Origin: Desulfurobacteriaceae bacterium
GTDB lineage: Bacteria; Aquificota; Aquificia; Desulfurobacteriales; Desulfurobacteriaceae
Assembly: GCA_039832905.1 (NCBI GenBank)
Contig: JBDOLX010000114.1
Span: forward strand, 1-39,440
Reading direction: 5' to 3'
DNA length: 39,440 nucleotides
Below the pieces are notes generated by a model that was not told the origin of the DNA, ran no database searches, and saw nothing but the letters and a program-made list of their open reading frames with translations. Positions 5,261 through 39,440 of this stretch are shown here, piece after piece; position 1 is the stretch's first letter, and every line of letters begins with the position of its first letter. A program made the translations under genes and the position numbers.

Positions 5261-5337
5261 AACTGTAAAGTTTCCGTAGAAGGAATTTGTTTGAAGGCAT
5301 ACATTAGCAGAATCTTAACCATAAGTTGAGGGGAGTT

Positions 5338-7382: not shown

Positions 7383-7546
7383 AATGAACTTTGAAAGAAT
7401 AAAAAAAGAAATAGAGACAAAAGATTTAATTGTGATAAAGGCTTTGCTTGAAATTTTAGAGGTTGAAGAAAAAAAGATAGGGCTACAGAGACCCAAAGGA
7501 ATAAAAGACGATATAAGAAAAATTTTTGATCGCTGGGGAAAGGAAT

Positions 7547-9493
7547 ATGATCCTGAAGAAAGTTAAGGTTAAGAACTTCAGACAATATTATGGTGAACAA
7601 GAACTAGAGTTCTCTACGGATCCAGAAAAGAATATTACCTTAATCTATGGAAAAAATGGTGCAGGAAAAACTTCTCTTTTTATGGGTATAAACTAGGTTC
7701 TCTATGGTTCGTCAGAGGTAAAAATAGAAGGTAAAAAAGTTAATAAGAAGGCAATAGATGAAGCAAAAGAAAAGGGTGAAGAGTTTGTAGAATCAGAAGT
7801 TGTTCTTACTTTTTCTCATGAAGGGATTGATTATCAAATAAAGCGAAAAGTGGTGTACGATGTAAAAGAGGATATTGAACATCCGGAAGAAGTGCAGATG
7901 GAGAAGATTTTTCCAAAAGTTGATGAAATATCAAATTCGTTGATAGCCTTAAATCCTATATTACCCCCAAATGTTCGAAGTTACTTTTTCTTTGACGGGG
8001 AAAAGATAGATGAATTTTCTAAACCTGATCACGACAAGGAAGTAAAGGAAGCTGTATACAAGGTTCTTGGTATTACTTTGATAGAACGGGCGATATCTCA
8101 TGTAAGAGATATTTTAAGAGAATATAACAAGGAACTGGCAAAAAAATCCTCGGGTAGATTGAGGGAGTTAAGAGAAAAATACAATGATGTTTTACAAGAA
8201 AAAGAAAATTTAGAAAACGAATTGAAGGAAGCAAAAGAAGAAAGGGAAGCACTGGAAGCTAACATAAGGGAGGTGAAGAGTAGGCTTAGGGAAATAGAAG
8301 AAATCCAACACTTGATAGAAAGGAGAGATGCTTTAGAAAGTAAATTAACAAGTATGGAGTTGGAACTTTCCAAAATCTATTCAAAACTTAGGAAAGTAAT
8401 CAATAAAAGTTTCCTTTTAATAGGTAGTATTTCTATAGAAGAGGCTTATGAAATACTAAGTAAGGAAATAAAAAATTCTGCTGATATTCCTAAGAAGTTT
8501 TTATCAAAGTTAATAGAGAAAATCTTAGAAGAAAAGGAATGTATATGTGGTTCAGCATTAACTCCGGAAATGAGAAGAAAACTTATAATGAAAAAAGCGG
8601 AAATTGCCCAAATGGCGAAAAGTGATAAGACAGAAGAAATAGTAAGTTCCATTATTGCAGAAATTTCAGGATTGAAGAGTAAAAAGGAAACTATACATAG
8701 TGAATTAATTTCTCTTTTTAGTGAGAAAATGAGATTAATGGATAAGATTCAGAAAACCTATGAGGCTTTAGATGAAGTGGATCAGCAGTTAAGTAAAAAT
8801 GAGTTGGAAGATGTAAGAAAACTTCAAGGTTTACTTGAAGAATATACAAAAGATTTGGGAAGATATACTCAAAAGATAGAAAGCATAGAGGAAAAAATAA
8901 AGGAAAAAAATGAAGAAATATTGTTCCTACAGAAGGAGATTAGTAAGGAAGAAAAGAAAGAGAGAGAAACTAATGAATTAACTAGGAAGAAGAATCTAGC
9001 GCAGGCAGTTTTACATCAACTGGAGACTCTCTATGAAAAGTTGTCTTTCAACTTAAGAAAAGAGATAGAAAGTGAAGCTACAAAGATATTTAAGAAGTTG
9101 ATTAGGAAAAAGGAATTCTTTAAACGTATAGAACTTTCTGAAGACTATCTCCTTAAGCTTATAGATGCCTTTGAAGATAGAGAATCTAAAAGAGAACTTT
9201 CTGCTGGAGAAAGACAAGTATTAAGTTTAGCTTTCATATTAGCATTGGCAAAAGTATCAAAGAAAGAAGCTCCTGTAGTTATGGATACTCCTTTTGGTAG
9301 ATTGGATCCAGAGCATAGAAGTAATATTCTTCAAGAGATTCCCTATTTAACACGTCAGCTTGTTCTTTTTGTAACTCCTTCAGAAATGACAGAGTCTCTT
9401 AAATTGCTTATACAAGATAAAGTAGGAAAGGAGTATGAACTTGATTTTAATGAACAGGAAAAATATACAAAAATTGTTCCTTTAGAGAGGTAG
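7547..9493 (+). pseudogene. DndD-like SMC/ABC-family ATPase (648 codons) with a single in-frame TAG at 7694-7696. The annotated 547-aa ORF (7850-9493) lacks the Walker A segment
   Basis: ATG 7547 preceded by an AAAGGA RBS. MILKKVKVKNFRQYYGEQELEFSTDPEKNITLIYGKNGAGKTSLFMGIN-stop-VLYGSSE... gives a Walker A GKNGAGKTS. Continuous frame into 7850-9493. Long coiled-coil middle. C-terminus LSAGERQVLSLAFILALAKV...VMDTPFGRLDPEHR resembles the DndD signature (DTPLGRLD). Confidence 0.75.
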
Positions 9494-9497
9494 ATTT

Positions 9498-9902
9498 ATG
9501 ATTTTGGAAATTTCTTTAAGGGACAAAATTTATATAGATGAAGACACACATGATATATACAAGAGGCTTAAGGAGGATTTAAAACTCTTTGATACTATGA
9601 AAGAACTATTCTTAGTAGCGGCAGCTGTAGGATATTATAACAATAAAAGAGTACCTTTAAAAAGGAGAAAAGATATTTTCTCTAAAAGTATTTTCGATAA
9701 GGAAACTGATATTCCATTTATTTATGTATTAGCATTAGCGGGAGAAAAAAGTAAAGAAGTTTTTCAAAAAGATGTTTTAAGTGTAGTTGAAGAATATGCT
9801 AACGGTGGAATTAGAATTTTGGCTGAAAAATTTGAAAATGTGAGAAAAATGGAAGAAGCTATAGACGAATTTAGTGCTTATTTAGTGGAGAAGTTTGGGT
9901 AG
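9498..9902 (+). CDS. Hypothetical 134-aa protein between the ATPase and the DUF262 nuclease
   Basis: AGAGAGG RBS; 4-nt gap from the preceding gene and overlaps the next gene. No recognisable motif. Confidence 0.55.
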   Translation: MILEISLRDKIYIDEDTHDIYKRLKEDLKLFDTMKELFLVAAAVGYYNNKRVPLKRRKDIFSKSIFDKETDIPFIYVLALAGEKSKEVFQKDVLSVVEEYANGGIRILAEKFENVRKMEEAIDEFSAYLVEKFG

Positions 9903-12027
9903 ATATTTGTTCGGAGGAGCGGAAGTGGGAGTAGAATATAAAAAGTATGAGTTAGAGAAATTCTTTGATCTTATAGATAGTGGAAAGATAGTTCTTCCAG
10001 AATTTCAAAGAGGATATGTATGGTCAATAGGAAAACAAAAAAGATTTCTTGCTAGTATTTTAGTAGGATTGCCAGTTGGAAGTACTCTTCATATTGAAGG
10101 TTCAGCTGGTGACTTTGTTGCAAGAGCTATTTGTGAACGACGAGAAGTGAACCCGAAAGAAGAATGTGAATATCTTTTAGATGGTCAGCAGAGGATTTCT
10201 ACTCTTTATAATATTTTTCAAGATATTTATGAAAAAGAAGAAACAAGGGATTGGAAAAAAGTCTTAAATTCTCTCTTTGATAAGCTTAGATATAGATGGT
10301 TTATTAAATTATCAAAGGAAGATGATATCTTTGGACTTAAAACATTAAAATTTGATCCAAGTAAGCTTCTTACTCTTGAACCTAGAAGAGTGGAAGAGTA
10401 TATAGAGGTGAAGAAAATAGAAGATATAAAGGAAGAAAAAATACAGAAAAAAAATGCTTGGTACCATCCTGCATTTATTCCTATAAAAGATGGACGAAAA
10501 CTTACAGGTCGGTTATCTGAATTGGAAAAGGCAAGATTGGCTGCAGAGGAATATTTAGTACCTTTGTTTGAAATTAGAAAGAAAGAGTTAGGATTGCATA
10601 GGCAAGTTCTTAAGCAAATTGCTAAAAGAAGAGTAGAAGAATTACAAGCAGAAGTAGCTGATGGAAAACTTAAGTTGAGAGATATATTGTCAGATATTCA
10701 TCCAGATATAGATAACTTGGACGAAAGAACTATTAATGAAGTATGGACAGAGTTGCAAATTAGTTGGGTAGAGGATGTTTCAAGATATCTAGAAGGATTA
10801 CTAAAAAGAGAAATTCCTGTTGTACTTTTACACAAAAATGAAATAGGTAGAGCTGCTGTTATTTTTGAGGAATTTAATACTGGAGGAACTAAGTTAGAAG
10901 ATTTCGATTTGTTTGTTGCTAAAGCAGCTAGAGTAGATTCAGAGAGGTCACTTGTAAGAAGGATAATGAATGTTCTAGATAGATCTTTTGATACTACTCA
11001 TTTAGAAAATGAGGCTATAAATTGGAAAGCAAATTTATTTACTCCAACAAAAGAGTTAAGTAAGAAATTTAAAAAGATATTTTTGAATTCCTTATCGTTA
11101 ATAGTATTTTCTCTGGAAAAAGGAGAAGAGCTTTCGAAAGAAATGACTCTTAGTGGTAAGATTCTTTCTTTACAACCTGAAGATGTAGTTAAATATACTG
11201 AGAGAGTAACAGAAGCTATTGTGAAAGCTTTTGCGTTTCTACAGTTGAAGTGTGGGCATGTTAATGAAAAATCTATTAGTTATGAATATATGATTTTACC
11301 AATAGTGTATGTGTTCTATTGTAAAGATGACATATGGTACGATAATAGCATTCTGAATAAGATAGGTGCTTGGTTTTGGGGATCTTTGTTTGCTGGTATG
11401 TATAAAGAAAGACAGGATGATCAGTTAATTAAAGATATAAAAATGCTTAAAGCTTGGTTAGTAGATGGAGAAGAAGATTCAGAAGAATTTAGGCGTTGGA
11501 AAACTGTTGTAACAGATAAAATATTTAATAGGGAAGGTTATTCAGACTGGGAGACACTGTTAAATAAAAATCCGGAAACAGAAGCACCTAAAGCTATTAA
11601 GAAAGCTATACTGAACTATATTCTTAGTAAGAAACCTGTAGATTTTTTACCGGATCAAGAGATTAATCTTACTGCGTATAAGTGTGCTAATGGTAATTTT
11701 AAGTTGGAAGAGCATCACATTATACCACTAGCAAGTGCAACTAAAATAGGAGAGTCTACAAAGAAGATAAGAAAAGAGAAAAAGCATATTTTGAATAGTC
11801 CCCTCAATCTTACATATATCTCTGATTCAGCAAATTTAAGAATCAGAGATAAAAGAATAGATGAGTACTTTAACGAGTTGGGACACTTTAAAATAGGTAC
11901 CCACATTTTTCCAACGGATATAAGGAAGCCTCAGAATGACGAAGAAAGAAAAGAAATTCTTAAGAAACGTTTGGAACTTTTGAAACAGAGTGTGACCTCT
12001 GAAATCAATATGTTACTAAATTCCTAA
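9895..12027 (+). CDS. DUF262 (ParB/Srx-like NTPase) + DUF1524 (His-Me finger nuclease) protein, GmrSD/SspE-like
   Basis: N-terminus has LPEFQRGYVW and LLDGQQRISTL. C-terminus has EEHHIIPLASA...NSPLNLTYISDSAN typical of DUF1524. The track start is TTG 9895; a GTG at 9925 preceded by GGAGGA is the more likely start. 3' end overlaps the dndE 3' end by 23 nt (convergent). Confidence 0.8.
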   Translation: MGRYLFGGAEVGVEYKKYELEKFFDLIDSGKIVLPEFQRGYVWSIGKQKRFLASILVGLPVGSTLHIEGSAGDFVARAICERREVNPKEECEYLLDGQQRISTLYNIFQDIYEKEETRDWKKVLNSLFDKLRYRWFIKLSKEDDIFGLKTLKFDPSKLLTLEPRRVEEYIEVKKIEDIKEEKIQKKNAWYHPAFIPIKDGRKLTGRLSELEKARLAAEEYLVPLFEIRKKELGLHRQVLKQIAKRRVEELQAEVADGKLKLRDILSDIHPDIDNLDERTINEVWTELQISWVEDVSRYLEGLLKREIPVVLLHKNEIGRAAVIFEEFNTGGTKLEDFDLFVAKAARVDSERSLVRRIMNVLDRSFDTTHLENEAINWKANLFTPTKELSKKFKKIFLNSLSLIVFSLEKGEELSKEMTLSGKILSLQPEDVVKYTERVTEAIVKAFAFLQLKCGHVNEKSISYEYMILPIVYVFYCKDDIWYDNSILNKIGAWFWGSLFAGMYKERQDDQLIKDIKMLKAWLVDGEEDSEEFRRWKTVVTDKIFNREGYSDWETLLNKNPETEAPKAIKKAILNYILSKKPVDFLPDQEINLTAYKCANGNFKLEEHHIIPLASATKIGESTKKIRKEKKHILNSPLNLTYISDSANLRIRDKRIDEYFNELGHFKIGTHIFPTDIRKPQNDEERKEILKKRLELLKQSVTSEINMLLNS

Positions 12028-12373
12028 AGTCTTCAAGCTTTTTAACCCTATTATAGAGGAGATCTGCTCCTCTATTTATATGTGCTCTGAAAAGCTCAAG
12101 TAGAAGTTTTTCATTTTGCAAATCAAAGCCATCTTTGTAAGCCCTTTGCTTAAAAAGACAAATCAAGATAGTGTCTAAATCACCAAGTAAAACATGCCTC
12201 ATTAACTCTTGACCATCTTGTTTATACCAATTCGGATCTGGTAATGTGGGGTCTTTCAAAGATAGAACCAAACCAAATCTACAGAGAATATTAGGAGTAA
12301 GACCTGTTCTTCCTTTTAGTATAGAAAGTTTTTGGCTAACTTTCTTGTCTAGGATAATCCTGTTAAATTTCAT
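12005..12373 (-). CDS. dndE: DNA sulfur modification protein DndE
   Basis: 122 aa, immediately downstream of dndD with a GGAGAGAG RBS. N-terminus MKFNRIILDKK...LKGRTGLTPNILCRFGLVLSL resembles the DndE family. Confidence 0.65.
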   Translation of the reverse strand: MKFNRIILDKKVSQKLSILKGRTGLTPNILCRFGLVLSLKDPTLPDPNWYKQDGQELMRHVLLGDLDTILICLFKQRAYKDGFDLQNEKLLLELFRAHINRGADLLYNRVKKLEDFRNLVTY

Positions 12374-12392
12374 TTTCTCTCTCCTAAAGCTA

Positions 12393-14327
12393 CTAATTCC
12401 AGAAGTATCCTTTTTGCACTTTTGTACACATACAATCTTCGTCGTAGACCAATAGATAAGAGTGTGATATATGTTTCTTCAATATGTTGAAAAGTTCTTT
12501 GTCCACTTCTACATTAGTAGACAAAATAATCACTTGATGGCTAATTTGTGGGAAATAATTATTAGCAAGATTTTCTCTGTGTTCGTTATCCAATCTACCT
12601 AAAGGAGTGTCTATAATCACTGGTAACTTTTTACCCGAGGTTTTTGCAAGTCCCCATAAAAACGATATTGCAAATATTTGTCTTTCTCCTGAAGAGAGTC
12701 TATCAATAGGAATTTTTCTATTATTCAAGTCAAAAAGAGTAATTTCAAAAGTTTCAGGGTCTATATGAAGATCTCTTATAAAATTCTCTTTTCTTTTAAG
12801 CTTATAAAGGGCATCTAGTATTTCTTTTTCCAAGATTTTTACCTTTCTTTTTATAAATTCGCTTCTGAACCTGTTAAGAACCTTCTGTGACTTTTCTATT
12901 AGGGAAATAACTCTTTTCTTCTTTGTCTTTTGTTTAATGAAGTTTTCTAATTTTTCTATCTCCTTTTCTATCTTTCTCTTCTCTCTTTCTAACTTATTGA
13001 CTTCTTCTTCTAACTGTTTCTTTTTAATTTCTGCTTCTATCTTTTCTTGGTCTAGCTTAGATATTTTTTCTAAATAGGGTCTGATAACCTCTTCGTCTGG
13101 AACATTTTGTAAACTGCTCTCGACTTCTAGTAACTCTTCTTCTAAGGTTTCTAATTTACGAAATAGTTCTTTAGCTTTATGTAAAGTGTTGGTTTTTAGG
13201 TTCTGTACTGCTATTTCTAGTAGTCTGTTTTCTCTTTCCGAAAGATCGTGAATGATGTCTATTTTAATTTCTTTTTTTACAAAGAATAGTCTTTTTATAT
13301 TTTCTAGCGTATCTTTATCTAAAGGAATGGATTTCAAAATACTTTCAAGTTCTTTGTACTTATTTTTTAGTATCTCTTCCTCAAACTTTATTTTTTTTAT
13401 CTCTTTTTCCATTTCTAGCTGGGCTAGAAGTTCTTCTAATAGATTTATACCTAGTGCAAGAGGTAAATCTTTGGAAGAAATTTCTCGTATCTCATTCTTA
13501 ACTTCTTCTATTTCGTTTTCCAGGAATTCTTTTTTGGATAGGTTTCTTTCATAATTTCTAAATAACTCTCCACCTTTTTCAATAAACTTTCTTTCTGCTT
13601 TCTTTAGTTCTTTTTCTAAATTGATTCTCTTTATTTCTAAACTAGCAATTTCCTGTTTTTTCTTTCCTAACTCTTCTTCTATTAGTTCTCTTTCTTCTTC
13701 CAGTTTGTTGAGTTCCTTTTGAATTTCTTCAGAGAAATCCTCTTGATGAAGATATCTTTTTCTTAATATTTCTAAACTATAGTTTAGAGTATCTACTACT
13801 GTAACTCCTAAAAGAGACTTGACGTCATTCACAAACTCTACTTCTGAAAAGTCTTCTGCAAGTTTTTCTATTTTCTCTCCATCAAAGAAGAAAAAGTTAA
13901 CCAAACTTGGAGGAATAATATCAGAAATAAATTCTTGCCATTGGTTTTTAGGAATTTCCTTATAAACTTCATTGTTTTTGTAAAGAAGAAATTCTTCTTT
14001 AAAACTTTTATTAAGATCCCATTTCCTAATTACTTTGTAAGTATCTTGAGATTCTAAGGAAAAATAAACAAACTCAAGTGATATTTGGGCAAGGTTCTCT
14101 CCTTTATGTATAAGTTTTCGAATAAACTCTTCATATTGTTTCTTTGTGTATCCGTAAATATTGTTACCGTATAAACATAACTTCACAGACTCAAGTAATG
14201 TAGTCTTTCCTGTTCCGTTTTTTCCACCAAACAAAATAATGTTTTTTCCTTTTCTTGGCTTTAAATCAAAAACATTTCTTCCTTTGTAAAGACCTATATT
14301 TTCTAAGGTTAAAGAAGTTAAAATCAT
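12393..14327 (-). CDS. dndD: DNA sulfur modification protein DndD (SMC-like ABC ATPase)
   Basis: Walker A GGKNGTGKTT; long coiled-coil. C-terminal signature LSSGERQIFAISFLWGLAKTSGKKLPVIIDTPLGRLDNEHRENLANNYFP characteristic of DndD. 4-nt overlap with dndC. Confidence 0.85.
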   Translation of the reverse strand: MILTSLTLENIGLYKGRNVFDLKPRKGKNIILFGGKNGTGKTTLLESVKLCLYGNNIYGYTKKQYEEFIRKLIHKGENLAQISLEFVYFSLESQDTYKVIRKWDLNKSFKEEFLLYKNNEVYKEIPKNQWQEFISDIIPPSLVNFFFFDGEKIEKLAEDFSEVEFVNDVKSLLGVTVVDTLNYSLEILRKRYLHQEDFSEEIQKELNKLEEERELIEEELGKKKQEIASLEIKRINLEKELKKAERKFIEKGGELFRNYERNLSKKEFLENEIEEVKNEIREISSKDLPLALGINLLEELLAQLEMEKEIKKIKFEEEILKNKYKELESILKSIPLDKDTLENIKRLFFVKKEIKIDIIHDLSERENRLLEIAVQNLKTNTLHKAKELFRKLETLEEELLEVESSLQNVPDEEVIRPYLEKISKLDQEKIEAEIKKKQLEEEVNKLEREKRKIEKEIEKLENFIKQKTKKKRVISLIEKSQKVLNRFRSEFIKRKVKILEKEILDALYKLKRKENFIRDLHIDPETFEITLFDLNNRKIPIDRLSSGERQIFAISFLWGLAKTSGKKLPVIIDTPLGRLDNEHRENLANNYFPQISHQVIILSTNVEVDKELFNILKKHISHSYLLVYDEDCMCTKVQKGYFWN

Positions 14328-15760
14328 TCTTTGTTAACCTCTCTTAAGATTTCTTCTTCTGTTCTCCATTCTTCGTTAAGAATTTTTTCAAGTTTCTTGA
14401 TAAGGGAGGTTTTTCTTGAGGAAAAAGCATTATACTGGCAAGTGTTAAGTAACTTGATTATTAGTCTTGGGTCTACATTTTCTTCTGTTGCCAATGACTC
14501 TATTAATTTCCTATCTTCCGCTGAAAAGACTCCAATATCTTCCTTTGGAATTTCTAACTCTTTTTCATAAACTTCTTTATAGATTTTTGCGACGCTATCT
14601 TCCCAATCACCTTCTTCCAGTTTCCAAATTCTTCTAATTTCTAAAAGTTCTTCAAGAGATATTAATTTAATTTCTTCTTCATAGGGATTATTCTCATTTA
14701 TCTTCTTCTCAGTTTCTAAAAGTTCTTTTAGGAAAATTTTTCTATATTCAAACTTGTAAGGTCCTCTCCCTAATTTCTTAGTTCCATTTCCATAGCTATT
14801 TCTTAAAAAGTATATACTTCCATCTCTTCTTTTGTAATCACGATAGATATGCTTATTTTCTGGATCTTGAGTTTTAACAAGCAATTCCCTAAATTCTTGA
14901 AGAGGGCGCAGCCAATTTTCCCCACTTTCTATAAGAGAACTAAGAGATTTTTCATTCTTAACAACAGTACAGACCCAACAACCGAATCTACTGTTACCTC
15001 CTGTCTGTTCATCAGCTGCAACTAAATTTCCAACTATAATAGGTGGTTCTCCCGCATTTGCTTGTTTATACATTTCAAATAACTCTTGATTGTTTCCTCC
15101 CCATGGAGACTCAAAATTAAGTAAATAATTCCAAACATCTTCAACTGTCCAGTCTTCTATAGGCGTGTAAACTAGAGCTCCAGGAAGAGTTGAATGTCTA
15201 GATAATCTACTATTTTCTATTTTGTGTTCATTTATCGTTTTCTCTCTATTGAGGCTTTCTGCCTTTCTAACTCCTAAAACTACAATAACTTCTCCATATT
15301 TACTTACTGTTTCAATTACAAATCTATTTGAAGGTTCTATCTTTAGTCTATCTGTGCACCATCTAAATTCTTTAGTGGGGGCAGGGTAACCTCTTCCAAT
15401 CAAATTAACCCAAAAAGTATCTGAAATTCGGGGACATACTTTTACAGCTTGAATAGGTAATCCTTTTTCTTTAGCTGCTTTATTAATAAGGGTAAGATTT
15501 TTATCTACGTAGTTTATGACTTTAGGGATTTCTATTAGTGTATCGGAAGAGAGTACGTATATAGGCTTTCTTAACTTATTTCTCGGCATTCTTTCTAAAG
15601 CTTCCCAAACCAATTGTAATGTTGCTGTAGAATCTTTTCCTCCGCTGTACCCTATTATCCACGGATAGCTATTTGAGAAATAAATATTCTCGATCTCTTT
15701 GTAAAGAGTATCTAAACTTTTTCCACCAAATAGAAAGGATTTTTTAGATTTATGTGACAT
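14324..15760 (-). CDS. dndC: DNA phosphorothioation protein DndC (PAPS-reductase-like ATP pyrophosphatase)
   Basis: PP-loop SGGKDS near the N-terminus; cysteine cluster RFGCWVCT; 478 aa. Operon position between dndB and dndD. Confidence 0.85.
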   Translation of the reverse strand: MSHKSKKSFLFGGKSLDTLYKEIENIYFSNSYPWIIGYSGGKDSTATLQLVWEALERMPRNKLRKPIYVLSSDTLIEIPKVINYVDKNLTLINKAAKEKGLPIQAVKVCPRISDTFWVNLIGRGYPAPTKEFRWCTDRLKIEPSNRFVIETVSKYGEVIVVLGVRKAESLNREKTINEHKIENSRLSRHSTLPGALVYTPIEDWTVEDVWNYLLNFESPWGGNNQELFEMYKQANAGEPPIIVGNLVAADEQTGGNSRFGCWVCTVVKNEKSLSSLIESGENWLRPLQEFRELLVKTQDPENKHIYRDYKRRDGSIYFLRNSYGNGTKKLGRGPYKFEYRKIFLKELLETEKKINENNPYEEEIKLISLEELLEIRRIWKLEEGDWEDSVAKIYKEVYEKELEIPKEDIGVFSAEDRKLIESLATEENVDPRLIIKLLNTCQYNAFSSRKTSLIKKLEKILNEEWRTEEEILREVNKE

Positions 15761-16796
15761 ATTTTTCTCCCAATATCTTCTTTAGAATGAACTCTGCTGT
15801 AGCTTTTATGTTTACGTTAGCTTTACTTAATCTACCTTTGTTTAGTGCTATTCCTTCCCACTCAGGATTATTTCTATGCCAGTCTATATCTTTCAGCCTA
15901 GAAAGAATTTCTCGTAGGTTTAATTGCTTTTTGATAATTACGCGACCTACTATAGCGATAGCGTTCAGAAAAAGTCCATGAGAATGGATGTATTCTTGTC
16001 TTGCCTTATAAGCAGCTAGTTCGCCTTTTTTTATCTTTTCCCACTCAGGAATGTTCCTACCTACTTCTTCCCAGAATTCAAAAGAAAGTATTCTGTCTTC
16101 TTCGCTTATTTCCACTTTGTTGCCTTTCTTATCTAGAAATTCTTTGGTAGCATGATAAATGCTACTTAGTGTAAAAAGTTTATTTGATCTATTTGATATA
16201 GAGCTTCTTTCATACTCTACTAAGTCTTTGAAATAGTAAACGTTTTCTGCAAGATATCTAGTTAACTCCGCCATCTGATCTCTATAGTCATATAGGATAC
16301 TAATGGATGGCGTTGGTTTTACGGAATACCTGTTCAAGTCAGTAAATATTTGCTGACTTCGTTCTAGTCCTAAATCAATAAAAACAACCATTGAAATTGT
16401 TTCGTAACCTAGTTCCGGATTTTCTTGAAGGGCTTGTTTTATAGCTTCAATCCTGTGTTGTCCGTCATTTATTATGATTCTTGAGTTTTTATCTATTTTA
16501 AGTTTTCCTATTTGATAGTTTTCTTCACTAATGGCTTCAAATTCCACTTTCCCATCAACGGAAATAGTGATTGAAGAAAAAACGTAAGTGTATGGGTTAT
16601 CCAAAATGTACTTTTTTATTTCTGGAATCCTTCTTTTATTGAGAATTCTCTGAGCCCTTAGTTTAGGTGGAAGTAAAGGAATGTTTATCTCTTTAAATAT
16701 CTCTGGAATTAGTTTTAATGGACACATTACAGTGTAAAATTCTTTTCCTGCTTGAATTCCTCTAACAGCAGGAAAGGTATAAAAGGAATTTCTCAT
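15750..16796 (-). CDS. dndB: DndB (DGQHR-domain regulator of the dnd operon)
   Basis: INDGQHRIEAI (DGQHR motif). N-terminus FPAVRGIQAGKEFYTVMCPL resembles the DndB family. Overlaps the dndC start. Confidence 0.8.
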   Translation of the reverse strand: MRNSFYTFPAVRGIQAGKEFYTVMCPLKLIPEIFKEINIPLLPPKLRAQRILNKRRIPEIKKYILDNPYTYVFSSITISVDGKVEFEAISEENYQIGKLKIDKNSRIIINDGQHRIEAIKQALQENPELGYETISMVVFIDLGLERSQQIFTDLNRYSVKPTPSISILYDYRDQMAELTRYLAENVYYFKDLVEYERSSISNRSNKLFTLSSIYHATKEFLDKKGNKVEISEEDRILSFEFWEEVGRNIPEWEKIKKGELAAYKARQEYIHSHGLFLNAIAIVGRVIIKKQLNLREILSRLKDIDWHRNNPEWEGIALNKGRLSKANVNIKATAEFILKKILGEKYVT

Positions 16797-18978: not shown

Positions 18979-19326
18979 CTATGTTTCCCCTTGGATTTCA
19001 TAATGTTCATCCCATCTCAGTTCAACATCTTCTTTTAGGTTGTAAAACTGACATACGGACTCAATTAAGTTTTTGTTATTTAGGACTTTTTTAGACGAAA
19101 GGATTACAAAGCGTTTTTTCCTCTTATTATAGACTACTCTGCCCCTTGGAATTTCGTCATATTCTAACAGTCTTAGTTGCGGATAACGGAGAATAAATTC
19201 ATCCCAATACGTAAAGTGATCACAAGACGGCTGAACCGTGTCTCCGTAATCTTCACCATTTTCAACTGGTTCCTTAAAACCGTCAACTTTGTTGTTTACT
19301 ATCCAGAAGACGCCAATATGAGGCAT
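18979..19326 (-). CDS. Hypothetical 115-aa protein in the FtsZ-like/DUF262/WD40 operon
   Basis: AAAGGA RBS. Gaps of 33 and 66 nt to its neighbours on the same strand. No recognisable motif. Confidence 0.55.
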   Translation of the reverse strand: MPHIGVFWIVNNKVDGFKEPVENGEDYGDTVQPSCDHFTYWDEFILRYPQLRLLEYDEIPRGRVVYNKRKKRFVILSSKKVLNNKNLIESVCQFYNLKEDVELRWDEHYEIQGET

Positions 19327-19358
19327 CTAAAATCCTTTTTTTTAACTCATTCTTATTT

Positions 19359-21704
19359 CTAAAATCTACAAGCGAAAAACATAAGTATCTTGTAATATCT
19401 TATATCTACAAGAAGTTTGAACGCCTCTACTATATATAAATAGTCCTCTCTTACTCCCCTTTGCTCCAATATTTGTTCTAACTCCTTGAAGCTTCTAAAC
19501 TCATCTCTCAACTTTAACTCATTTTTCAACTTGTTCTTTAACCCTATTATCTTTTTTGCAAAATCTTTAGTACCTTTAATATCTGGATAATTTTCTCCTG
19601 TTTTTTTCTCGTATGTTTCCGCCTTATCAAATATAGAACGGTTACCTTCACTTATATTTAGTTTAGACTCTACTAAAAAGATGTTTCCTATATTATTTAC
19701 CCATTTTTCATAGTCCCAGTCTCTTTCTTTTTCTTCTTCTAAGGAGTAGGGAAGATCATTTTTATAAAAGTCCCTCTCTATTCTTTTAAATGCTTCTTTT
19801 AGTAAGTCTTTTTCTTGCGAATTAACGGAAAACAAGTGTTCTCTCTGTAGACCTCTTGGTCTTTTAGATAAGGGCTTTAGTATGTTTTTCTCAAATGATG
19901 ACTTATCATAGTCAAAATTAATTCTTTCAAATTCAGCTAAAACGTAAAAGTAATCCTCTCTAAAGTCATAAATGGGATATTTATAGAAATCCTTTCTATA
20001 ACATTTGTTAGATTGAGAACTGATAAATCTATACTTTCCTTCCTTTAGATGATTGGAAAAGTTAAAGAGTCCTCCCCAAGGACGTTTACCAAGTTTCCAA
20101 ACAAACATTTCTGAAAACTCTAAAATATTGAGTATATAAGCTCTTTCTGTTAAAAACTCTTTCAAACACGAAGATTCATGTTTGAGATACTCTTCAAGGA
20201 ATTCGGCAGAATCTTTAAATTTTTTCTTCAAGTAATCAATTCTCTTTTCTAATCTCTCCTTGAAGGATACAAGTCCTAACTTTTTCTTCCTTTCTTCTAA
20301 GAGAAACTTCTGTTCCTCTTCAACATCAAAAGTTTTGTTAAACTTAAGTTCCGAGTTAAGATTCAAAGCTATGTAATGTGTAAATCTTGAAGCCCCATAA
20401 ATGCCCAAGAATTCTCTAACGGAATAAGAAAGTTCATTACTCAGAATATCAATGCCTGATTTCTCTACATTGGTAATACTTTCTTTTAATGTTGAGTAAT
20501 ACTGCTTAATTTCCTTTAAACTTTCATACAAAACACTAAATAGTTTCTTAGCTTCACTTTTTAGATCGTAATTTATAAGATCCCTAAAGGCTTTATTTAT
20601 TGCTTGATATATAGTATCTTCCCCTGATTCATACCATATATCTATTGAGTACTTAATACTTCCATCCAGAGAAGAACTTTCCTTCTCTTTCTTAATTACA
20701 TCTATCACATATCTATAGAAACTTTTTCCACTTACTGCATTAGATCTATATAAAAGGAGATTTAAGAGATGCATTGTAGTGGCTTCTGCTTCTTTTGCAC
20801 TTTTGAAAACCATGAATCTTTCTGAAGTTAAGGACTCTAAAAGTTCGTAGATGTCTGCAAAAAGTTCATTAATATCGTTGTTTTTTTCATTTCTTACTTC
20901 TTCCCCAAATAATAAGTTAGCATAATAAATCATTAAGCTTTTAAGTTTTTCTAAGGCAGTTAATCTTTTACCTCTATCCGTCTGAGAAACAAAGATGTTT
21001 ATAAGTTCAGAAAATGCTGTTTCCTCTTCTTTTTTCGTTAGTTCTCTTACATTAATAACTGTTTTGATAACTTTTAGATTCTCAAGGGATTCATACAATC
21101 TACTACTACTATGGTTTGCAAGATTTTCAATAAAATAACAAAAAGCTCTCCTCATTAATTCTTGACTGTAAGTTTTAGGACATAGCTTTTCAATGTTTTT
21201 AGCATTAGCAAGTTCTTTCAAGAAATCATAGTCTATCGGAGATCCAAGAAAAATTCTTGGTTCAGAATCCTCGACGAACAGTTTTTTCTTTATTTCACTT
21301 TCTTTACCCATTCCTTTCAACTTTCGTAGCATAGCAAATAAAAATAACCATAAAGTTGTTAATCTTTGTTGTCCATCTATAATGAGATAAAACTTGGTTC
21401 TTTCATTTTCCAAGTTTTTAATCTGCTGGTAAACTTTTTTATTTACAAAATTCTTTAACTCATCTAAAGCAACCTCTGCCAAGAACACAGTACCAAAGAT
21501 ATAGTTTCTTATATCTCTTTCAGATACATTTTTGATATCAAAGAAAAAATCCTCTATCTGTTTTTTTTCCCAAGCATAAGGTCTTTGATAATGTGGTATG
21601 AGATACAAAACATTACCTTCCAATAATCGAGGAAACTCTGTTAATTCAACATCAAATATTTTCTCATTTTGCTTTTTAGAATCCATACAGTCCAATTTTT
21701 TCAC
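19359..21704 (-). CDS. DUF262 + DUF1524 (GmrSD-family) protein, 781 aa
   Basis: LIPHYQRPYAWEKKQIEDFFFD and YLIIDGQQRLTTLWL (DUF262). C-terminus LQREHLFSVN...NIGNIFLVESKLNISEGNRSIFDK (DUF1524-like). Start codon uncertain (GTG 21704, TTG or ATG a few codons in). Confidence 0.8.
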   Translation of the reverse strand: MKKLDCMDSKKQNEKIFDVELTEFPRLLEGNVLYLIPHYQRPYAWEKKQIEDFFFDIKNVSERDIRNYIFGTVFLAEVALDELKNFVNKKVYQQIKNLENERTKFYLIIDGQQRLTTLWLFLFAMLRKLKGMGKESEIKKKLFVEDSEPRIFLGSPIDYDFLKELANAKNIEKLCPKTYSQELMRRAFCYFIENLANHSSSRLYESLENLKVIKTVINVRELTKKEEETAFSELINIFVSQTDRGKRLTALEKLKSLMIYYANLLFGEEVRNEKNNDINELFADIYELLESLTSERFMVFKSAKEAEATTMHLLNLLLYRSNAVSGKSFYRYVIDVIKKEKESSSLDGSIKYSIDIWYESGEDTIYQAINKAFRDLINYDLKSEAKKLFSVLYESLKEIKQYYSTLKESITNVEKSGIDILSNELSYSVREFLGIYGASRFTHYIALNLNSELKFNKTFDVEEEQKFLLEERKKKLGLVSFKERLEKRIDYLKKKFKDSAEFLEEYLKHESSCLKEFLTERAYILNILEFSEMFVWKLGKRPWGGLFNFSNHLKEGKYRFISSQSNKCYRKDFYKYPIYDFREDYFYVLAEFERINFDYDKSSFEKNILKPLSKRPRGLQREHLFSVNSQEKDLLKEAFKRIERDFYKNDLPYSLEEEKERDWDYEKWVNNIGNIFLVESKLNISEGNRSIFDKAETYEKKTGENYPDIKGTKDFAKKIIGLKNKLKNELKLRDEFRSFKELEQILEQRGVREDYLYIVEAFKLLVDIRYYKILMFFACRF

Positions 21705-21723
21705 CTCCCCTTTTCACTTCATT

Positions 21724-22695
21724 CTACCAAACCGCTTTACTTATCCCTGTTGCTATAACGGTTATCTCTACAGAGTCTTCTATTTCTTCCTCTATGTTAA
21801 CTGCAAAGAAAAAATTTGTGTTGTCTCTCTTTGTCCTTTCTTCTACTAGTCTTACTGCCTCATAAACTTCGTCAAGTGTCAGATCCATTCCACCTTTTAT
21901 GCTTATCAACACGTAGCTTGCCTTCTCAAGTTGAACATCTTTTAGAAAAGGACTATTTATTGCTTTTCTTGCAGCCACTATGCCTTTGTCTTTCCCAGTT
22001 GCTTTACCGCTACCAATAAAAGCATAACCACCATTACGTATCACGGTTCTTACATCAGAAAAATCGATGCTAATAAGTCCAACTTTCGTTATGGGTTCAA
22101 CTATTCTTTTTATTGCTTGGTAAAAAACATCATCAATCAATAACCTAAAAGCGTCCAATACACTCATATCATTAGAAGCAACATCAAGAAGTTTTTGATT
22201 AGGAACAACGATTAAGGTATCCACAAACTCTTTAAGTTTTCTTATTCCAATCTTTGCGCGTTCGTGTCTTTTCTTTCCCTCAAAATTGAAAGGATAAGTA
22301 ACGATACCAACAGTTAAAATTCCCATATCTTTTGCGACTTTGGCTATTAAAGGTGCTACTCTTGTTCCTGTTTCCCCTCCCATACCGGTGATAATAAACA
22401 CTAAATTATAACCCTCAATAGCTTTTCTAAGCTTAGATTCTTCCTTTAAGAGTGACCGTTCTTTTACTGCCTGTTTTTCCTCAGCCTCAAGAAATTCGAT
22501 AAAACCTTCTTCTATCTGAATCTTAATTGGTCCTTGAATTCTCAAAAGTGTCTGAACGTCTGTATCTATAGCTATAAACTCAATTCCTTTAATTCCTTTA
22601 GCAAAAATCATTTCAACGGTATTACAACCACATTCTCCTATTCCAATAACTTTAATAGTTGGTTTCTGTGATGTTTTATCTACTATGCCAGACAT
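21724..22695 (-). CDS. FtsZ paralog (tubulin/FtsZ GTPase fold) with degenerate T1 and T3 loops, no C-terminal tail
   Basis: Long collinear similarity to canonical FtsZ: GMGGETGTRVAPLIAKVAKDMGILTVGIVTYPFNFEGKKR, then VPNQKLL...SVLDAF, then T7-loop SIDFSDVRTV, then GYAFIGSG, then SPFL. The glycine box is GIGECGCN instead of GGGGGN, and the T3 GLGAGxxPxxG segment is replaced by a charged stretch EEGFIEFLEAEEKQAVKERSLLKEESKL. ATG at 22695 preceded by AGGG; the track starts at TTG 22740. Confidence 0.8.
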   Translation of the reverse strand: MSGIVDKTSQKPTIKVIGIGECGCNTVEMIFAKGIKGIEFIAIDTDVQTLLRIQGPIKIQIEEGFIEFLEAEEKQAVKERSLLKEESKLRKAIEGYNLVFIITGMGGETGTRVAPLIAKVAKDMGILTVGIVTYPFNFEGKKRHERAKIGIRKLKEFVDTLIVVPNQKLLDVASNDMSVLDAFRLLIDDVFYQAIKRIVEPITKVGLISIDFSDVRTVIRNGGYAFIGSGKATGKDKGIVAARKAINSPFLKDVQLEKASYVLISIKGGMDLTLDEVYEAVRLVEERTKRDNTNFFFAVNIEEEIEDSVEITVIATGISKAVW

Positions 22696-23024
22696 CTCAA
22701 CTACCCTATAATCCAATATATTAAAGCTTACAACAAGCAATAATAAGAATAAATTTGGACAGAAAGTGACCTATAAAAAGGTTTTCTTCTTTAAAAGCAA
22801 GTCTTAAAGAAAAACATCAAATCTGTTCCAAATTGCTTTGAAAATATCTATGGAAAACTTGAAAACAAAGTTTAATGTGTTAAACTAAAATACACTAAAT
22901 TAGTTTAATGGATTACTAATAGATATAGCTAAAAGACTTAAGGTTCCTGAATGAATTCTTCTACCTTCTTAAAGTCTATCTAAACCTCTATGCTGTATAT
23001 GTTTTATGCGAATGAAACTCCCCG

Positions 23025-23372
23025 TCAAAAATCATCAGCACCAATAAAGAAGCAGATGGCTTTTTCTAACTTTCTCATTTCTTCCCTCGTCAGAGAAGCT
23101 ATCCTATCAGGAATGACTCTTGATAAGTCAATTGCCCTTATCTGGTCTATCATGACTGCCGAATCCTTTTCTAAACGTTCCCTTGCCTTTATGAAAAGCC
23201 TCATGGGGTACTTGCCTTTGAGATTAGAGGTTATCGGCGCTACAAGAACTGTAGGATAGCTACTAAGAATTTCTTGCCTTTGGATGACTACCACAGGTCT
23301 CGTTTTGCCAGGTTCTGCTCCCTTCGTTGGACTGAGTTTTGCTAAGTATATCCCGCCTCTAATCAAGTCCAT
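23025..23372 (-). CDS. mazF: MazF/PemK-family toxin (endoribonuclease)
   Basis: RGGIYLAKLSPTKGAEPGKTRPVVVIQ matches the MazF/PemK N-terminal signature. 14-nt overlap with the upstream antitoxin. Confidence 0.8.
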   Translation of the reverse strand: MDLIRGGIYLAKLSPTKGAEPGKTRPVVVIQRQEILSSYPTVLVAPITSNLKGKYPMRLFIKARERLEKDSAVMIDQIRAIDLSRVIPDRIASLTREEMRKLEKAICFFIGADDF

Positions 23373-23601
23373 CTGTCACCGTCCCTTCTAAATCTCTAAT
23401 ATCTTTTAGGTTTTCCGGGTCCTCTGCAAGTTCCCTTGCAGATTCAATTAAATCCTTTAACATCTCCTGTTTTTCAAGTTCCCTTTTGTACAGAAGAAGA
23501 GCTTTTTTAACTATCAGGCTTTTAGGACTTTTTGTTTTCTTAGATAGGTTCTCTAACAATTCAAAGAATTGATCATCTAACCTAATCGTATAAGTCTTCA
23601 A
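23359..23601 (-). CDS. RHH antitoxin of the MazF/PemK-family toxin
   Basis: RHH pattern TIRLDDQFFELLENLSKKTKSPKSLIVKKAL. C-terminal DIRDLEGTVTDGL motif shared with the antitoxin-like ORFs at 26052 and 27514. Confidence 0.7.
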   Translation of the reverse strand: MKTYTIRLDDQFFELLENLSKKTKSPKSLIVKKALLLYKRELEKQEMLKDLIESARELAEDPENLKDIRDLEGTVTDGLD

Positions 23602-25936: not shown

Positions 25937-26051
25937 TTACTTAGTTCTTTTCATAGATTGCATCTTCTATAAAGTAAAATCTACATAGTAATCAAATAAA
26001 CCGAGAAGAAGAAGGTTCAATTATTTTCATCCTACTAACTAAAGGAAAAAA

Positions 26052-26444
26052 ATGTTCACTTATGCATATATAAGAGTTTCTACAGATAAAGAGGAGATAG
26101 AAAATCAACGACTTGAGATTCTTAGATATGCTAACGAGAAAAAGTTCTGTCATCAAAAAGTTGACTTTTCCTGTCAAAAAATTAGATTCTCTTTAAGAAG
26201 GATAAAAGAAGATCAAAAAGCTATAAAAGATATAAAAGAGTTAAAAGGAACTGTAAGTGATAGATTTTCAGTTAAGTTTGATTTCATAAAAGGAATAGAA
26301 CCTGGAAAGATCAAGTCAAAAGAACAATTAGAGAAACTGTCAGAAAGAGACTGTGTGAAAATCCAGAGGAACAAAAAGAGAACTCATAGATTGAAGAAGC
26401 AAACAACTAAAAGCTATGAAGGAAAAAGGAACATGAGAGTGTGA
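26052..26444 (+). pseudogene. Chimeric ORF: serine-resolvase N-terminus (first ~33 codons) fused to a C-terminal fragment of a MazE-like antitoxin and the start of a MazF remnant
   Basis: MFTYAYIRVSTDKEEIENQRLEILRYANEKKFCHQK aligns with the resolvase start. IKEDQKAIKDIKELKGTVSDRFSVKFDFIKG parallels 27514-27732. DNA is ~95% identical to 27365-27480 and carries a deletion relative to the 27361-27939 locus. Confidence 0.7.
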
Positions 26445-27215: not shown

Positions 27216-27369
27216 CGTATCCCTCAGTAAGCTTTATTTATGCATATCTACCTATGTGTATAGAATTTACATCAACTTTGTCAAGTTTTCTACTGCAAAT
27301 CCACACTCCCAAAATATTGAGATGAAGTTTTACTATTTATCTTTCTTCAAAAATCTCATAATGAAAAAA

Positions 27370-27490
27370 GAGTTTCTACAGATAAAGAGGAGATAGAAAA
27401 CCAACGATTTGAGATTCTTAGATATGCTAACGAGAAAAAGTTCTGTCACCAAAAATTGACTTATCCTGCCAAAAAATTAGATTCTCCTTA
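27370..27490 (+). pseudogene. 5'-truncated fragment of a serine-resolvase gene start (RVSTDKEEIENQRFEILRYANEKKFCHQK...)
   Basis: About 95% DNA identity to 26073-26190. No start codon. Ends 24 nt before the antitoxin-like ORF at 27514. Confidence 0.7.
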
Positions 27491-27513
27491 AGAAAGTAAC
27501 TAAGAGGTTAAAT

Positions 27514-27732
27514 ATGAAAGTATTTACAACTAAGCCGGACAATGAGTATCAAGAGAAACTACGAAGAAAAGAATTAACAAAAAGAATGGTTAAAGCTGCA
27601 AAAAGGATGAAAGAAGACAAAGAAGCTATAGAAGACATAAAAGAATTAGAAGGAACTGTGGGTGATGGACTTTCAGTTAAGTTTGATCTCATAAAAAGAG
27701 TAGAACATGAAAAGACCAGATCAAAAGAATAG
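27514..27732 (+). CDS. MazE-like antitoxin (72 aa)
   Basis: Shares EAIEDIKELEGTVGDGLSVKFDLIK with the antitoxin at 23359-23601. Followed in-frame by a mazF remnant. Confidence 0.55.
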   Translation: MKVFTTKPDNEYQEKLRRKELTKRMVKAAKRMKEDKEAIEDIKELEGTVGDGLSVKFDLIKRVEHEKTRSKE

Positions 27733-27939
27733 TTAAGGAAACTGTTAGAACAGATAACTCCTGAAAATTTACATGATGAAGTTAATTGGGATAAAAAAGT
27801 GGAAGAGAGGAGTGGTAGATATATTCCTGAAAGAGGAGATGTTCTATGGTTACAGTTTTCACCACAAGCAGGACATGAACAGACAGGAAGAAGTTCTGCT
27901 ATTTATCTTTCTCCGAAAATTCTTATAATGGAAAGATAA
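27733..27939 (+). pseudogene. MazF-toxin remnant (N-terminal ~45 codons only, no start codon)
   Basis: In-frame translation ...RYIPERGDVLWLQFSPQAGHEQTGRRSAIYLSPK matches the E. coli MazF N-terminus (YVPDMGDLIWVDFDPTKGSEQAGHRPAVVLSP), then stops at 27937-27939. Confidence 0.65.
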
Positions 27940-27985: not shown

Positions 27986-28594
27986 ATGTCTACTTACGCT
28001 TATATAAGAGTTTCTACTGATAAGCAAGAAACAGAAAACCAAAGATTTGAAATTCTTAGATATGCTAATGAGAAGAAGCTAGGAAATGTTGAGATTATAG
28101 AAGAAACTATAAGTGGTAGGAAAAGTTGGAAAGTTAGAAAAATAGGTGCCCTTGTCCCTATGCTTTCAAAAGGGGATGTTCTTATCATTACTGAGCTTTC
28201 AAGACTTGGTAGATCTATGCTAGAGATTATGGAAATCTTATCTATCCTTCTAAGAAAAGGTGTAGAACTCCACGTTGTTAAAAATAGGCAAGTGTTAAAA
28301 GACGACTTGCAAAGCAAAGTCTTTGCAATGGCTTTCTCTATAGCTGCAGAGATAGAAAGAGAGCTAATCAGTCAAAGAACAAAAGAAGCTTTGAGAAGGA
28401 GAAAAGCAGAAGGTAAACCTCTTGGTAGACCTAAAGGTAGCTATTCCTCCAGACTAGACAAATACAAAGACCAAATAGAAGAGTTTAGAAAAAAAGGTGT
28501 ATCAATAGCATCTATTGCCAAGATTCTTGAAGTTCCTTATACAACTCTATATAGCTACCTAAAAAGACGAGAAAACTCAGATTCGAACTTCTAA
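27986..28594 (+). CDS. Serine recombinase (resolvase/invertase family), intact
   Basis: Catalytic YIRVSTDKQ with Ser10. C-terminal HTH SIASIAKILEVPYTTLYSYL. 202 aa. AAGGGAG RBS. Confidence 0.9.
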   Translation: MSTYAYIRVSTDKQETENQRFEILRYANEKKLGNVEIIEETISGRKSWKVRKIGALVPMLSKGDVLIITELSRLGRSMLEIMEILSILLRKGVELHVVKNRQVLKDDLQSKVFAMAFSIAAEIERELISQRTKEALRRRKAEGKPLGRPKGSYSSRLDKYKDQIEEFRKKGVSIASIAKILEVPYTTLYSYLKRRENSDSNF

Positions 28595-28663
28595 ATTTTT
28601 TTAAAAATGACAAAAAATACGCTTAAAGTGCATACCTTTTGAAGGAGGTTAAAAACAACTAAA

Positions 28664-36411: not shown

Positions 36412-36652
36412 TCCCCTCTATCCCGTCTGATTTCGCTTCTAACGAATTCCAAGTTAAATAAAGGTATTACTTCCCCCCCTCTATCTCGTCTCAGAGACCC
36501 AAATCCGTTAACGAGAGAGTGTCTCTTTTCCAGTCTTAGAACTGTATCCCTGATTGATAGCAATAAGCAATAACAGTCAAACTTTAAGTCAAAACTTCTG
36601 AGGGCAGAAGTAATGCTGATTGACAAGTTGGCAGATTGGCAGGTCTGCTTAC
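36412..36652. repeat. Conserved ~245-bp noncoding block, copy A (counterpart of 39353-39440+1-175)
   Basis: See the feature at 1-175. Contains hairpin CTTCTGAGGGCAGAAG (36595-36610) and GCTGATTGACAAG / CAGATTGGCAGG direct repeats. Confidence 0.8.
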
Positions 36653-36689
36653 AAAGGTAAGAACGAAAATGAAAAGTGGAAAGTAAAAA

Positions 36690-36890
36690 GTAGGAATTTG
36701 AATGCTGAAATCTGAATTTTGAAAGCTGGAAGCTGAATGCTGAATTCAGGATGTTGAATGTTGAAATCTGAATTCAGAATTCTGAAAGTTAAATGCTGAG
36801 TTCTGAATGTTGAATTCAGAATGCTGAATGTTAAATGTTAAATGTTAAATGTTGAATGTTAAATGTTGAAACTTAATCTGAATTTAAATT
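36690..36890. repeat. Tandem array of ~11-bp units (TGAATGCTGAA / TGAATGTTAAA) and AATTCAGAATTCTGA palindromes
   Basis: Visible as AATGTTAAATGTTAAATGTTAAATGTTGAATGTTAAATGTTGAAA. Not CRISPR. Confidence 0.8.
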
Positions 36891-37010
36891 CAGAAACTAT
36901 AAAGTCCCTATTTATTAAAAGTAATATTACTTTTAATAGGAAAATGCACAATATATATATATGTGCACATATACATGTGCACAAGATTACTTAACATTGT
37001 GCACACTCTG
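36891..37010. promoter_or_regulatory. Perfect 24-bp palindrome ATTAAAAGTAATATTACTTTTAAT (36914-36937) followed by TGTGCACA-type boxes (36961-36970, 36974-36983, 36998-37007)
   Basis: Counterpart of 363-500. Lies ~400 bp upstream of the iterons. Confidence 0.55.
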
Positions 37011-39347: not shown

Positions 39348-39352
39348 AAAAT

Positions 39353-39440
39353 CCTCTCTATCCCGTCTGATTTCGCTTCTGACGAATTCCAAGTATAAAG
39401 GTATTACTCCCCCCTCTATCTCGTCTCAGAACCCCCAATC
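39353..39440. repeat. 5' part of conserved block copy A'; also 19-nt terminal redundancy (39422-39440 = 1-19)
   Basis: CCTCTCTATCCCGTCTGATTTCGCTTCTGACGAATTCCAAG... aligns with 36412-36500. The final 19 nt are identical to the first 19 nt of the window. Confidence 0.85.

Follow-up and report, generated by a model that had tools for sequence, protein, structure and literature searches.

Contig JBDOLX010000114.1 of a hot-vent Desulfurobacteriaceae bacterium, analysed here over its whole length of 39,440 nucleotides (the window), is probably a circular, plasmid-like accessory element of about 39.4 kb. On its minus strand it encodes a paralogue of FtsZ that, judged by its sequence, has specifically lost the phosphate site and the C-terminal tail. 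We infer, as the most likely role of this product, that it is a selectively maintained, FtsZ-derived pseudo-GTPase which would act substoichiometrically to modulate or inhibit assembly of the host Z-ring; we give this reading a probability of about 0.45.

An earlier note on this DNA placed the gene at 21724-22740. A 338-codon open reading frame (ORF) with a TTG start does occupy 21724..22740 of the minus strand in the ORF list, but translation almost certainly begins at the ATG at 22695 and yields a product of 323 amino acids (aa), because the N-terminus then has the length found in canonical FtsZ (aligned from Met16) and NCBI annotates 323 aa. The NCBI record MEO2069605.1, from the metagenome-assembled genome (MAG) of the Desulfurobacteriaceae bacterium, is the exact 323-aa product and is labelled "cell division protein FtsZ." The parts of the gene discussed below are the following.

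21724..22695, minus strand: coding sequence of the FtsZ paralogue, 323 aa plus stop, with the ATG at 22695
22696..22740, minus strand: in-frame upstream extension of 15 codons from the TTG, probably untranslated (alignment and NCBI annotation)
22618..22644, minus strand: T1 and start of helix H1, GIGECGCNT (aa 18-26) in place of GVGGGGGNA (alignment and position frequencies)
22462..22494, minus strand: T3 position, FLEAEEKQAVK (aa 68-78) in place of GLGAGGKPEIG (gapless alignment, position frequencies)
22360..22386, minus strand: T4 tubulin signature, GMGGETGTR (aa 104-112) in place of GMGGGTGTG (alignment, frequencies)
22054..22086, minus strand: T7 synergy loop and start of H8, KVGLISIDFSD (aa 204-214) (alignment, frequencies)
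21727..21747, minus strand: C-terminal end, ...ATGISKAVW, without linker or conserved C-terminal peptide (alignment)

The protein had been described as collinear with bacterial FtsZ, and this holds over its full length. It matches the Pfam families Tubulin (PF00091, 1.5e-34) and FtsZ_C (PF12327, 6e-22), and phmmer against the PDB finds E. coli FtsZ at 1.5e-73 and 49 solved FtsZ chains below 1e-50. The homology indicated by these alignments is global and collinear and extends beyond isolated motifs, and the buried and structural invariant residues of FtsZ are retained. Structure prediction, proposed in the earlier note as a check, agrees: the AlphaFold2 (AF2) model has a mean predicted local distance difference test score (pLDDT) of 88.8 and a predicted template modelling score (pTM) of 0.88, and Foldseek superimposes it on solved FtsZ structures with template modelling (TM) scores of 0.82-0.93. 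As modelled, the paralogue has the complete two-domain FtsZ fold, consisting of a nucleotide-binding domain at the N-terminus, helix H7 and a GTPase-activating domain at the C-terminus. Its score against the TIGR00065 equivalog is 293.7 bits, which is 1.5 bits short of the cut-off of 295.2.

Phosphate-binding loops and the C-terminal end

The loops were compared with 145 FtsZ representatives, which come from the 150 top-scoring hits obtained when 1.84 billion 50%-identity cluster representatives were searched exhaustively with phmmer. Residues of the paralogue are numbered as in S. aureus FtsZ up to H7 and with an offset of +1 thereafter. Ten hallmark positions were scored (G21, N44, G62, G68, G70, G72, P75, G78, G108 and G112). 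None deviates in 137 of the representatives, one does in 7 and two in a single sequence, and in the paralogue all ten are changed. Across 89 closer FtsZ sequences, 119 columns reach at least 90% conservation, and the paralogue is altered in 37 of them, mostly to residues never found in these canonical proteins.

The motifs reported in the earlier note (GIGECGCN, GMGGETGT, ILTVGIVTYPFNFEGKKR and DFSDV) are all present, but their interpretation needs some revision. The altered T1 is real, the glycine box GGGGxN reading GECGCN; only E21 is aberrant, however, with Gly in 144/145 representatives, while both cysteines lie within natural variation (Cys at position 22 in 3/145 and at position 24 in 36/145). 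In T2 we find N44D. No normal T3 loop occurs anywhere in the protein when it is aligned to FtsZ, as had been claimed. The supposed replacement of this loop by a charged helical insert of about 30 residues was mistaken: the region aligns without gaps in both HMMER and MAFFT, the substitution has taken place in situ, and the charged helix behind it is the usual H3. All four glycines of the gamma-phosphate sensor GxGAGxxPxxG, and its proline, are gone through G68F, G70E, G72E, P75Q and G78K, each at a position at least 96% conserved in FtsZ, and A73E is changed as well. The AF2 model is uncertain only here, its pLDDT falling to 56 at residues 71-80. T4, which had been listed as retained, is not: GGGTG[ST]G reads GGETGTR, with G108E and G112R at two positions that are Gly in 145/145 representatives. 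G108 of S. aureus FtsZ is a gamma-phosphate contact (PMC8936486).

In filament structures of S. aureus FtsZ, loops T1-T4 hold the phosphates, with T5 at the ribose and T6 at the guanine; A71, A73, G108 and T109 contact the gamma-phosphate mimic, and N44 and D46 hold the waters of the Mg2+ ion (PMC8936486). The phosphate-contact positions altered in the paralogue are G21E, N44D, G70E, G72E, A73E, G108E and G112R, and seven new acidic side chains stand in the phosphate site. The loss is concentrated in H1/T1 and T3, where 7 of 22 positions conserved in Desulfurobacteriaceae are kept versus 147 of 231 elsewhere (Fisher p=0.005). Family-conserved positions of T5 (5/7) and T6 (6/7) are largely retained, as are N25, E139, R143, N166, F183 and D188. 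A single Gly-to-Ser change in the signature motif, that of FtsZ84 (G105S), is enough in vitro to impair GTP binding as well as hydrolysis and assembly (PMC4603965). The paralogue is very unlikely to bind GTP in the normal way, since T1, T3 and T4 have lost their glycines and the pocket has gained seven carboxylates.

The earlier claim that there is no linker or membrane-tethering tail is borne out. Six residues follow the VIATG motif, where the shortest tail among the 145 representatives has 22 and the median is 187. FtsZ of the Desulfurobacteriaceae finishes in a conserved ...LLEELKxED peptide that is not present in the paralogue, which is therefore without the linker and C-terminal peptide that tether FtsZ to anchors of the FtsA/SepF type. 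In the only orthologue found (locus L001, see below) the protein ends in ...ATGFDEEETLI, and homology to it breaks off right after the Gly317 codon. By these measures the paralogue is not a canonical FtsZ in the functional sense: the T1, T3 and T4 motifs, the tail and the equivalog cut-off all fail.

The partly preserved pocket might instead suggest a ligand-binding and possibly filament-forming protein, in which either a guanine ligand is still bound or the carboxylates replace the phosphates, and which would serve the plasmid as a TubZ-like cytoskeletal or segregation element. The conservation of T5, T6 and the six residues from N25 to D188 listed above, and the plasmid-like nature of the contig, would fit such a protein. 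However, every active member of the tubulin/FtsZ family that we sampled keeps the T1, T3 and T4 glycines, and the new acidic side chains crowd the site that the phosphates would occupy. The element already possesses a ParA-type partition ATPase, and no TubR-like or centromere partner adjoins the gene. We regard this explanation as very improbable.

TubZ and PhuZ resemble the paralogue in being tubulin-superfamily proteins whose genes reside on mobile elements, but they belong to another family, keep their GTP motifs, and possess a long helix at the C-terminus as well as TubR/tubC partners, none of which is seen here. The search of the PDB with the paralogue returned no TubZ or PhuZ chain at E<=1e-3, the best hits being the 49 FtsZ chains, and the genes adjoining the paralogue encode MazEF and the GmrSD-type nuclease. 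A TubZ-like partition motor is rejected, since the proteins closest to the paralogue are genuine FtsZ, its GTP motifs have gone and ParA is present.

Origin, host FtsZ and selection

The best full-length relatives are FtsZ proteins of the Desulfurobacteriaceae (Desulfurobacterium, Phorcysia, Thermovibrio and MAGs) at 52-57% identity, with other phyla at 40-48%. A neighbour-joining tree places the paralogue as sister to all 35 Desulfurobacteriaceae FtsZ sequences, on a branch (0.279) about twice as long as their mean (0.134); the canonical proteins average 86% identity among themselves. The best full-length match (P0002, MEO2068412.1) is 356 aa long and has all FtsZ motifs and the tail intact. 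Proteins of this contig are numbered MEO2069591-629, and locus tag ABGX27_08880, about gene number 1776, corresponds to MEO2069603. MEO2068412.1 falls inside the accession block of the genome, so that the same MAG very probably also encodes this canonical FtsZ. The two proteins share the two-domain fold and are collinear over about 305 residues, and T5, T6, R143 and the T7 Asp pair are common to both. In contrast to the canonical protein, the paralogue is changed at the T1-T4 hallmarks, is without linker and C-terminal peptide, lies outside any cell-wall or division gene neighbourhood, has the longer branch, and scores under the TIGR00065 cut-off.

The sole orthologue in the collections searched is P0001, a 202-aa C-terminal fragment encoded on a 1,325-bp JGI contig (L001). 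It carries residues specific to the paralogue (YPFNFEG, SIDFSD, F191, K258 and others) and is also tail-less. A full-length search of 5.8 billion clusters for orthologues gave this partial sequence alone, and the N-terminal 123 aa of the paralogue, used as a separate query, gave no match. The phmmer search of 1.84 billion representatives returned P0001 and canonical FtsZ and no other orthologue; scans of genomes, metagenomes and viral contigs found distant canonical FtsZ or nothing, and in plasmid and phage collections there were only ordinary FtsZ genes, at or below 47% identity.

The two genes, which come from independent assemblies and in both of which the ORF is intact, are 95.5% identical over 582 nucleotides (nt). 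Between them 15.5 changes are synonymous and 11.5 non-synonymous, which corresponds to a ratio of non-synonymous to synonymous rates (dN/dS) of 0.20 over 194 codons; about 12 of the 27 changes are non-synonymous, against the 78% expected under neutrality (binomial p=1.6e-4). This value argues that the gene is maintained by purifying selection, at least across the C-terminal 60%. Taken with the change at all ten hallmarks, it supports the earlier suggestion of altered nucleotide handling or a pseudo-GTPase.

In a different history the gene would be a relic with no function left: a host ftsZ, duplicated or captured, that hitch-hikes on the mobile element and decays, the GTP pocket first. Its extreme rarity (a lone partial orthologue among 5.8 billion clusters, with the scans of genomes, metagenomes and viruses yielding none) would be expected of such a relic, and neighbouring genes look damaged, with a split helicase and a truncated PbeC-like ORF. 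A cassette swap has overwritten the 3′ end of the gene, AT bias favours both Gly-to-Glu and Gly-to-Cys, each of which takes a single step, and divergence is spread across all surfaces. Against decay, the 323-codon frame is intact, dN/dS between the two independent copies is 0.20 with the p value given above, and the predicted fold is confident, with buried and structural invariant residues kept. On balance we consider a relic unlikely.

The searches also brought up four tandem double-FtsZ proteins from outside the window (P0165-P0168, 731-840 aa), each with two full FtsZ cores per chain. The first core of P0168 carries a degenerate T3, and neither core of that protein has the T7 Asp pair. Catalysis may have been lost in these tandem cores too.

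Proposed role and comparison with known systems

The T7 loop had been reported as retained, and of the NxDxxD motif, which reads SIDFSD, the catalytic D211 and D214 are indeed kept. The Asn is replaced by Ser, however (N209S, at a position that is N in 143/145 representatives), and P205V, L210I and A213S are changed as well. In S. aureus FtsZ, N208, D210 and D213 of the upper subunit complete the active site, and N208L, D210N or D213N abolishes assembly (PMC8936486).

A paralogue unable to bind GTP normally would be unable to serve as the lower, nucleotide-presenting subunit of a protofilament, and so would neither propagate a filament nor polymerise by itself. Because the C-terminal peptide is missing, it would not be recruited to the membrane. 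The sole FtsZ-type contact left to it would join its C-terminal (T7) face to the GTP face of host FtsZ, either of a monomer or at the end of a filament, and docking onto FtsZ filaments in this manner is plausible. The resulting complex would be a dead end that does not propagate, possibly with stimulation of hydrolysis like that of a GTPase-activating protein (GAP). Such a modulator would serve the element, for example through division delay or an abortive or addiction-type function. In a more specific form of this proposal, the element would have domesticated host FtsZ into a nucleotide-free, tail-less "half-subunit" (a chain terminator, a GAP or a phosphate-mimicking cap), either to arrest or time host division or to bait phage proteins that target FtsZ; we hold this to be conceivable, though on the doubtful side.

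Several points weigh against a role in modulating the Z-ring. The T7 face is not specially preserved, contrary to what the earlier note implied: counting T7, H8, H10 and S9 as the bottom face, 19 of 31 positions are kept versus 111 of 174 in the rest of the protein, and the Asn is lost. The comparison with the top face (24/48) is not significant either (Fisher p=0.36). N209S affects the residue equivalent to N208 of S. aureus FtsZ, whose substitution by Leu abolishes assembly (PMC8936486). A T7-face docker may be a weak inhibitor, because filaments grow at the T7-exposing end and, by the precedent of E. coli, FtsZ defective in the top face is less toxic than the bottom-face mutants (PMC8936486). 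Gly-to-Glu is the expected outcome of a single transition in a genome of 32% GC, and the acidic pocket may reflect drift after constraint was lost, not design. There are only two instances of the gene, the second without the N-terminal 123 residues, so that the conservation and selection data do not cover the degenerate pocket. Gene context, finally, ties the paralogue to no partner, because the adjacent GmrSD-type gene is a swapped cassette and the family of the 115-aa neighbour occurs without FtsZ (see below).

Tail-less FtsZ proteins that likewise stop after the globular core and coexist with an essential full-length FtsZ are found in Alphaproteobacteria (A. tumefaciens FtsZ1, S. meliloti FtsZ2 and M. 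gryphiswaldense FtsZm). A. tumefaciens FtsZ1 cannot form polymers by itself and depends on the main FtsZ, with which it co-polymerises; GTP is hydrolysed by the mixture about as fast as by the main FtsZ alone (bioRxiv 10.1101/412759). These proteins differ from the paralogue in keeping a complete GTPase domain, whereas its phosphate loops are destroyed.

The FtsZ-like domain of plant ARC3 is not known to retain the GTP-binding motifs. Like the paralogue, ARC3 contains an FtsZ-derived domain (combined with MORN), and it is known to act on FtsZ in the way that we propose here. It directly inhibits or modulates assembly of the chloroplast Z-ring (PMC12232670; bioRxiv 10.1101/2024.01.08.574726). 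By analogy, ARC3 is the nearest functional counterpart of the paralogue, but it is eukaryotic, multidomain (middle and MORN domains) and far more diverged, whereas the paralogue is a bare and fairly recent bacterial FtsZ core.

Engineered top-face mutants of FtsZ and the natural filament cappers MciZ, SulA and MipZ likewise combine one competent with one incompetent longitudinal interface (PMC8936486, PMC9897490). If this analogy holds, the one-sided interface should make the paralogue a chain terminator or sequestering partner. The cappers differ in that they are proteins or peptides without relation to FtsZ and attach to its C-terminal (T7) face, and among the engineered mutants the toxic class is bottom-face-defective, unlike the paralogue, which is top-face-defective.

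The element and its neighbouring genes

The genes flanking the paralogue on its downstream side are these.

19359..21704, minus strand: GmrSD/SspE-like DUF262 nuclease gene (Pfam GmrSD_N 1e-30; PADLOC HEC-06, Orf5, SspE)
18979..19326, minus strand: orphan gene of 115 aa, alone among the neighbours in being conserved with the paralogue in L001
17120-18913: multi-WD40 beta-propeller protein of 597 aa, flanked by dndB and the 115-aa gene and on the same strand as these

The nuclease gene begins 19 nt past the stop of the paralogue and has its own strong GGAGG ribosome-binding site. Comparison of 19319-21745 with positions 583-903 of L001 reveals a cassette swap, the 2.4-kb GmrSD gene here being replaced by a 320-bp spacer in L001, with one breakpoint directly behind codon Gly317 of the ftsZ-like gene and the other within the N-terminus of the 115-aa gene. 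A scan for promoters and terminators around the paralogue gene gave results no better than shuffled sequence.

The 115-aa protein has no Pfam, NCBIfam or PDB match. Its family comprises 18 clusters, confined to similar metagenomes, and elsewhere the genes adjoin MNT nucleotidyltransferase, PLD-DUF87, PDDEXK_4 or Nmad2/3 genes, without any FtsZ. In three loci (L008 8001-8351, L009 3993-4343 and L010 2616-2966) the gene overlaps an upstream MNT-type nucleotidyltransferase gene and precedes PLD-DUF87, and in a fourth (L012 2336-2698) it follows Nmad2/Nmad3. The protein may be an undescribed toxin-antitoxin or defence partner.

This setting bears on the idea that the paralogue is a decoy or sensor, a mimic of host FtsZ that binds FtsZ inhibitors of phages or plasmids (Kil-, gp0.4- or SulA-like) and either titrates them or reports to defence effectors such as the GmrSD-type nuclease. 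The gene lies within a defence and toxin-antitoxin island, in this genome only 19 nt upstream of that nuclease gene, and a protein that is shaped like FtsZ but can neither polymerise nor get to the membrane would make bait that does no harm. The nuclease gene is, however, a swapped-in cassette missing from the only other locus, and no PADLOC-DB model matches the FtsZ-like protein, while its neighbours match DndB-E, PbeC, SspE, HEC-06 and Orf5. A literature search found no publication linking FtsZ with decoy immunity, and the surface residues have diverged far from host FtsZ (55% identity). We think a decoy or sensor quite unlikely.

The remainder of the window carries the following features.

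4292-4924: ParA partition ATPase
5326-12027: Pbe-like phosphorothioate-dependent restriction module (PADLOC PbeC)
12005-16796: DndBCDE, intact (PADLOC hits DndB-E)
23025-23601: MazEF
37406-37515: four to five tandem 22-bp iteron-like repeats (TCTTGTTTGAAAGCACGCACTC), upstream of the 423-aa ORF
37583-38854: orphan 423-aa ORF without Pfam, NCBIfam or PDB match

The circular, plasmid-like character of the element is deduced from the terminal overlap, a repeated end segment and the iteron-like repeats. The contig ends (1-19 and 39422-39440) overlap exactly by 19 bp, and a segment of about 545 bp (36412-36957) is repeated across the ends (39352-39440 plus 1-453) at 88-95% identity. The iteron-like repeats together with the 423-aa ORF constitute a candidate plasmid replicon. 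Two PIN genes, HipA, an MNT-type nucleotidyltransferase and resolvases are also present. DndC falls in the same 90% cluster as the DndC of Phorcysia, and the element therefore belongs to the Desulfurobacteriaceae. Scans of the window against Rfam and for tRNAs gave nothing.

The Pbe-like module looks damaged: its helicase is split into two ORFs (5326-7020 and 7056-7382), and the PbeC/DndD-like ORF at 7850-9493 matches its models only from about position 126-156 onward. The resolvase/invertase region occurs in inverted copies at 613-1229 and 27998-28613 (77-89% identity) and in partial direct copies at 26010-26345 and 27306-27750. The segment of about 27 kb between the inverted copies, which includes the ftsZ-like gene and the Dnd and Pbe modules, could be invertible. 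Near the contig start, beside the repeated segment, positions 213-380 hold a dense array of 7-nt-periodic AGTAGTAAGT-like repeats.

The NCBI label "cell division protein FtsZ" is almost certainly wrong in the functional sense, and scoring of ftsZ copy number or function in genomes by name would be misled by it. Bacterial FtsZ paralogues described so far keep their GTPase motifs, and our literature search found no publication combining "pseudoGTPase" and FtsZ. An FtsZ core that natural selection maintains with one of its longitudinal interfaces dead would offer a ready-made way to probe the polarity and capping of filaments, and it may point to a new class of division regulator encoded by mobile elements. 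Should the paralogue prove to be a domesticated half-subunit, bacteria would have their first pseudo-GTPase regulator derived from FtsZ, and ARC3 a counterpart among prokaryotes.

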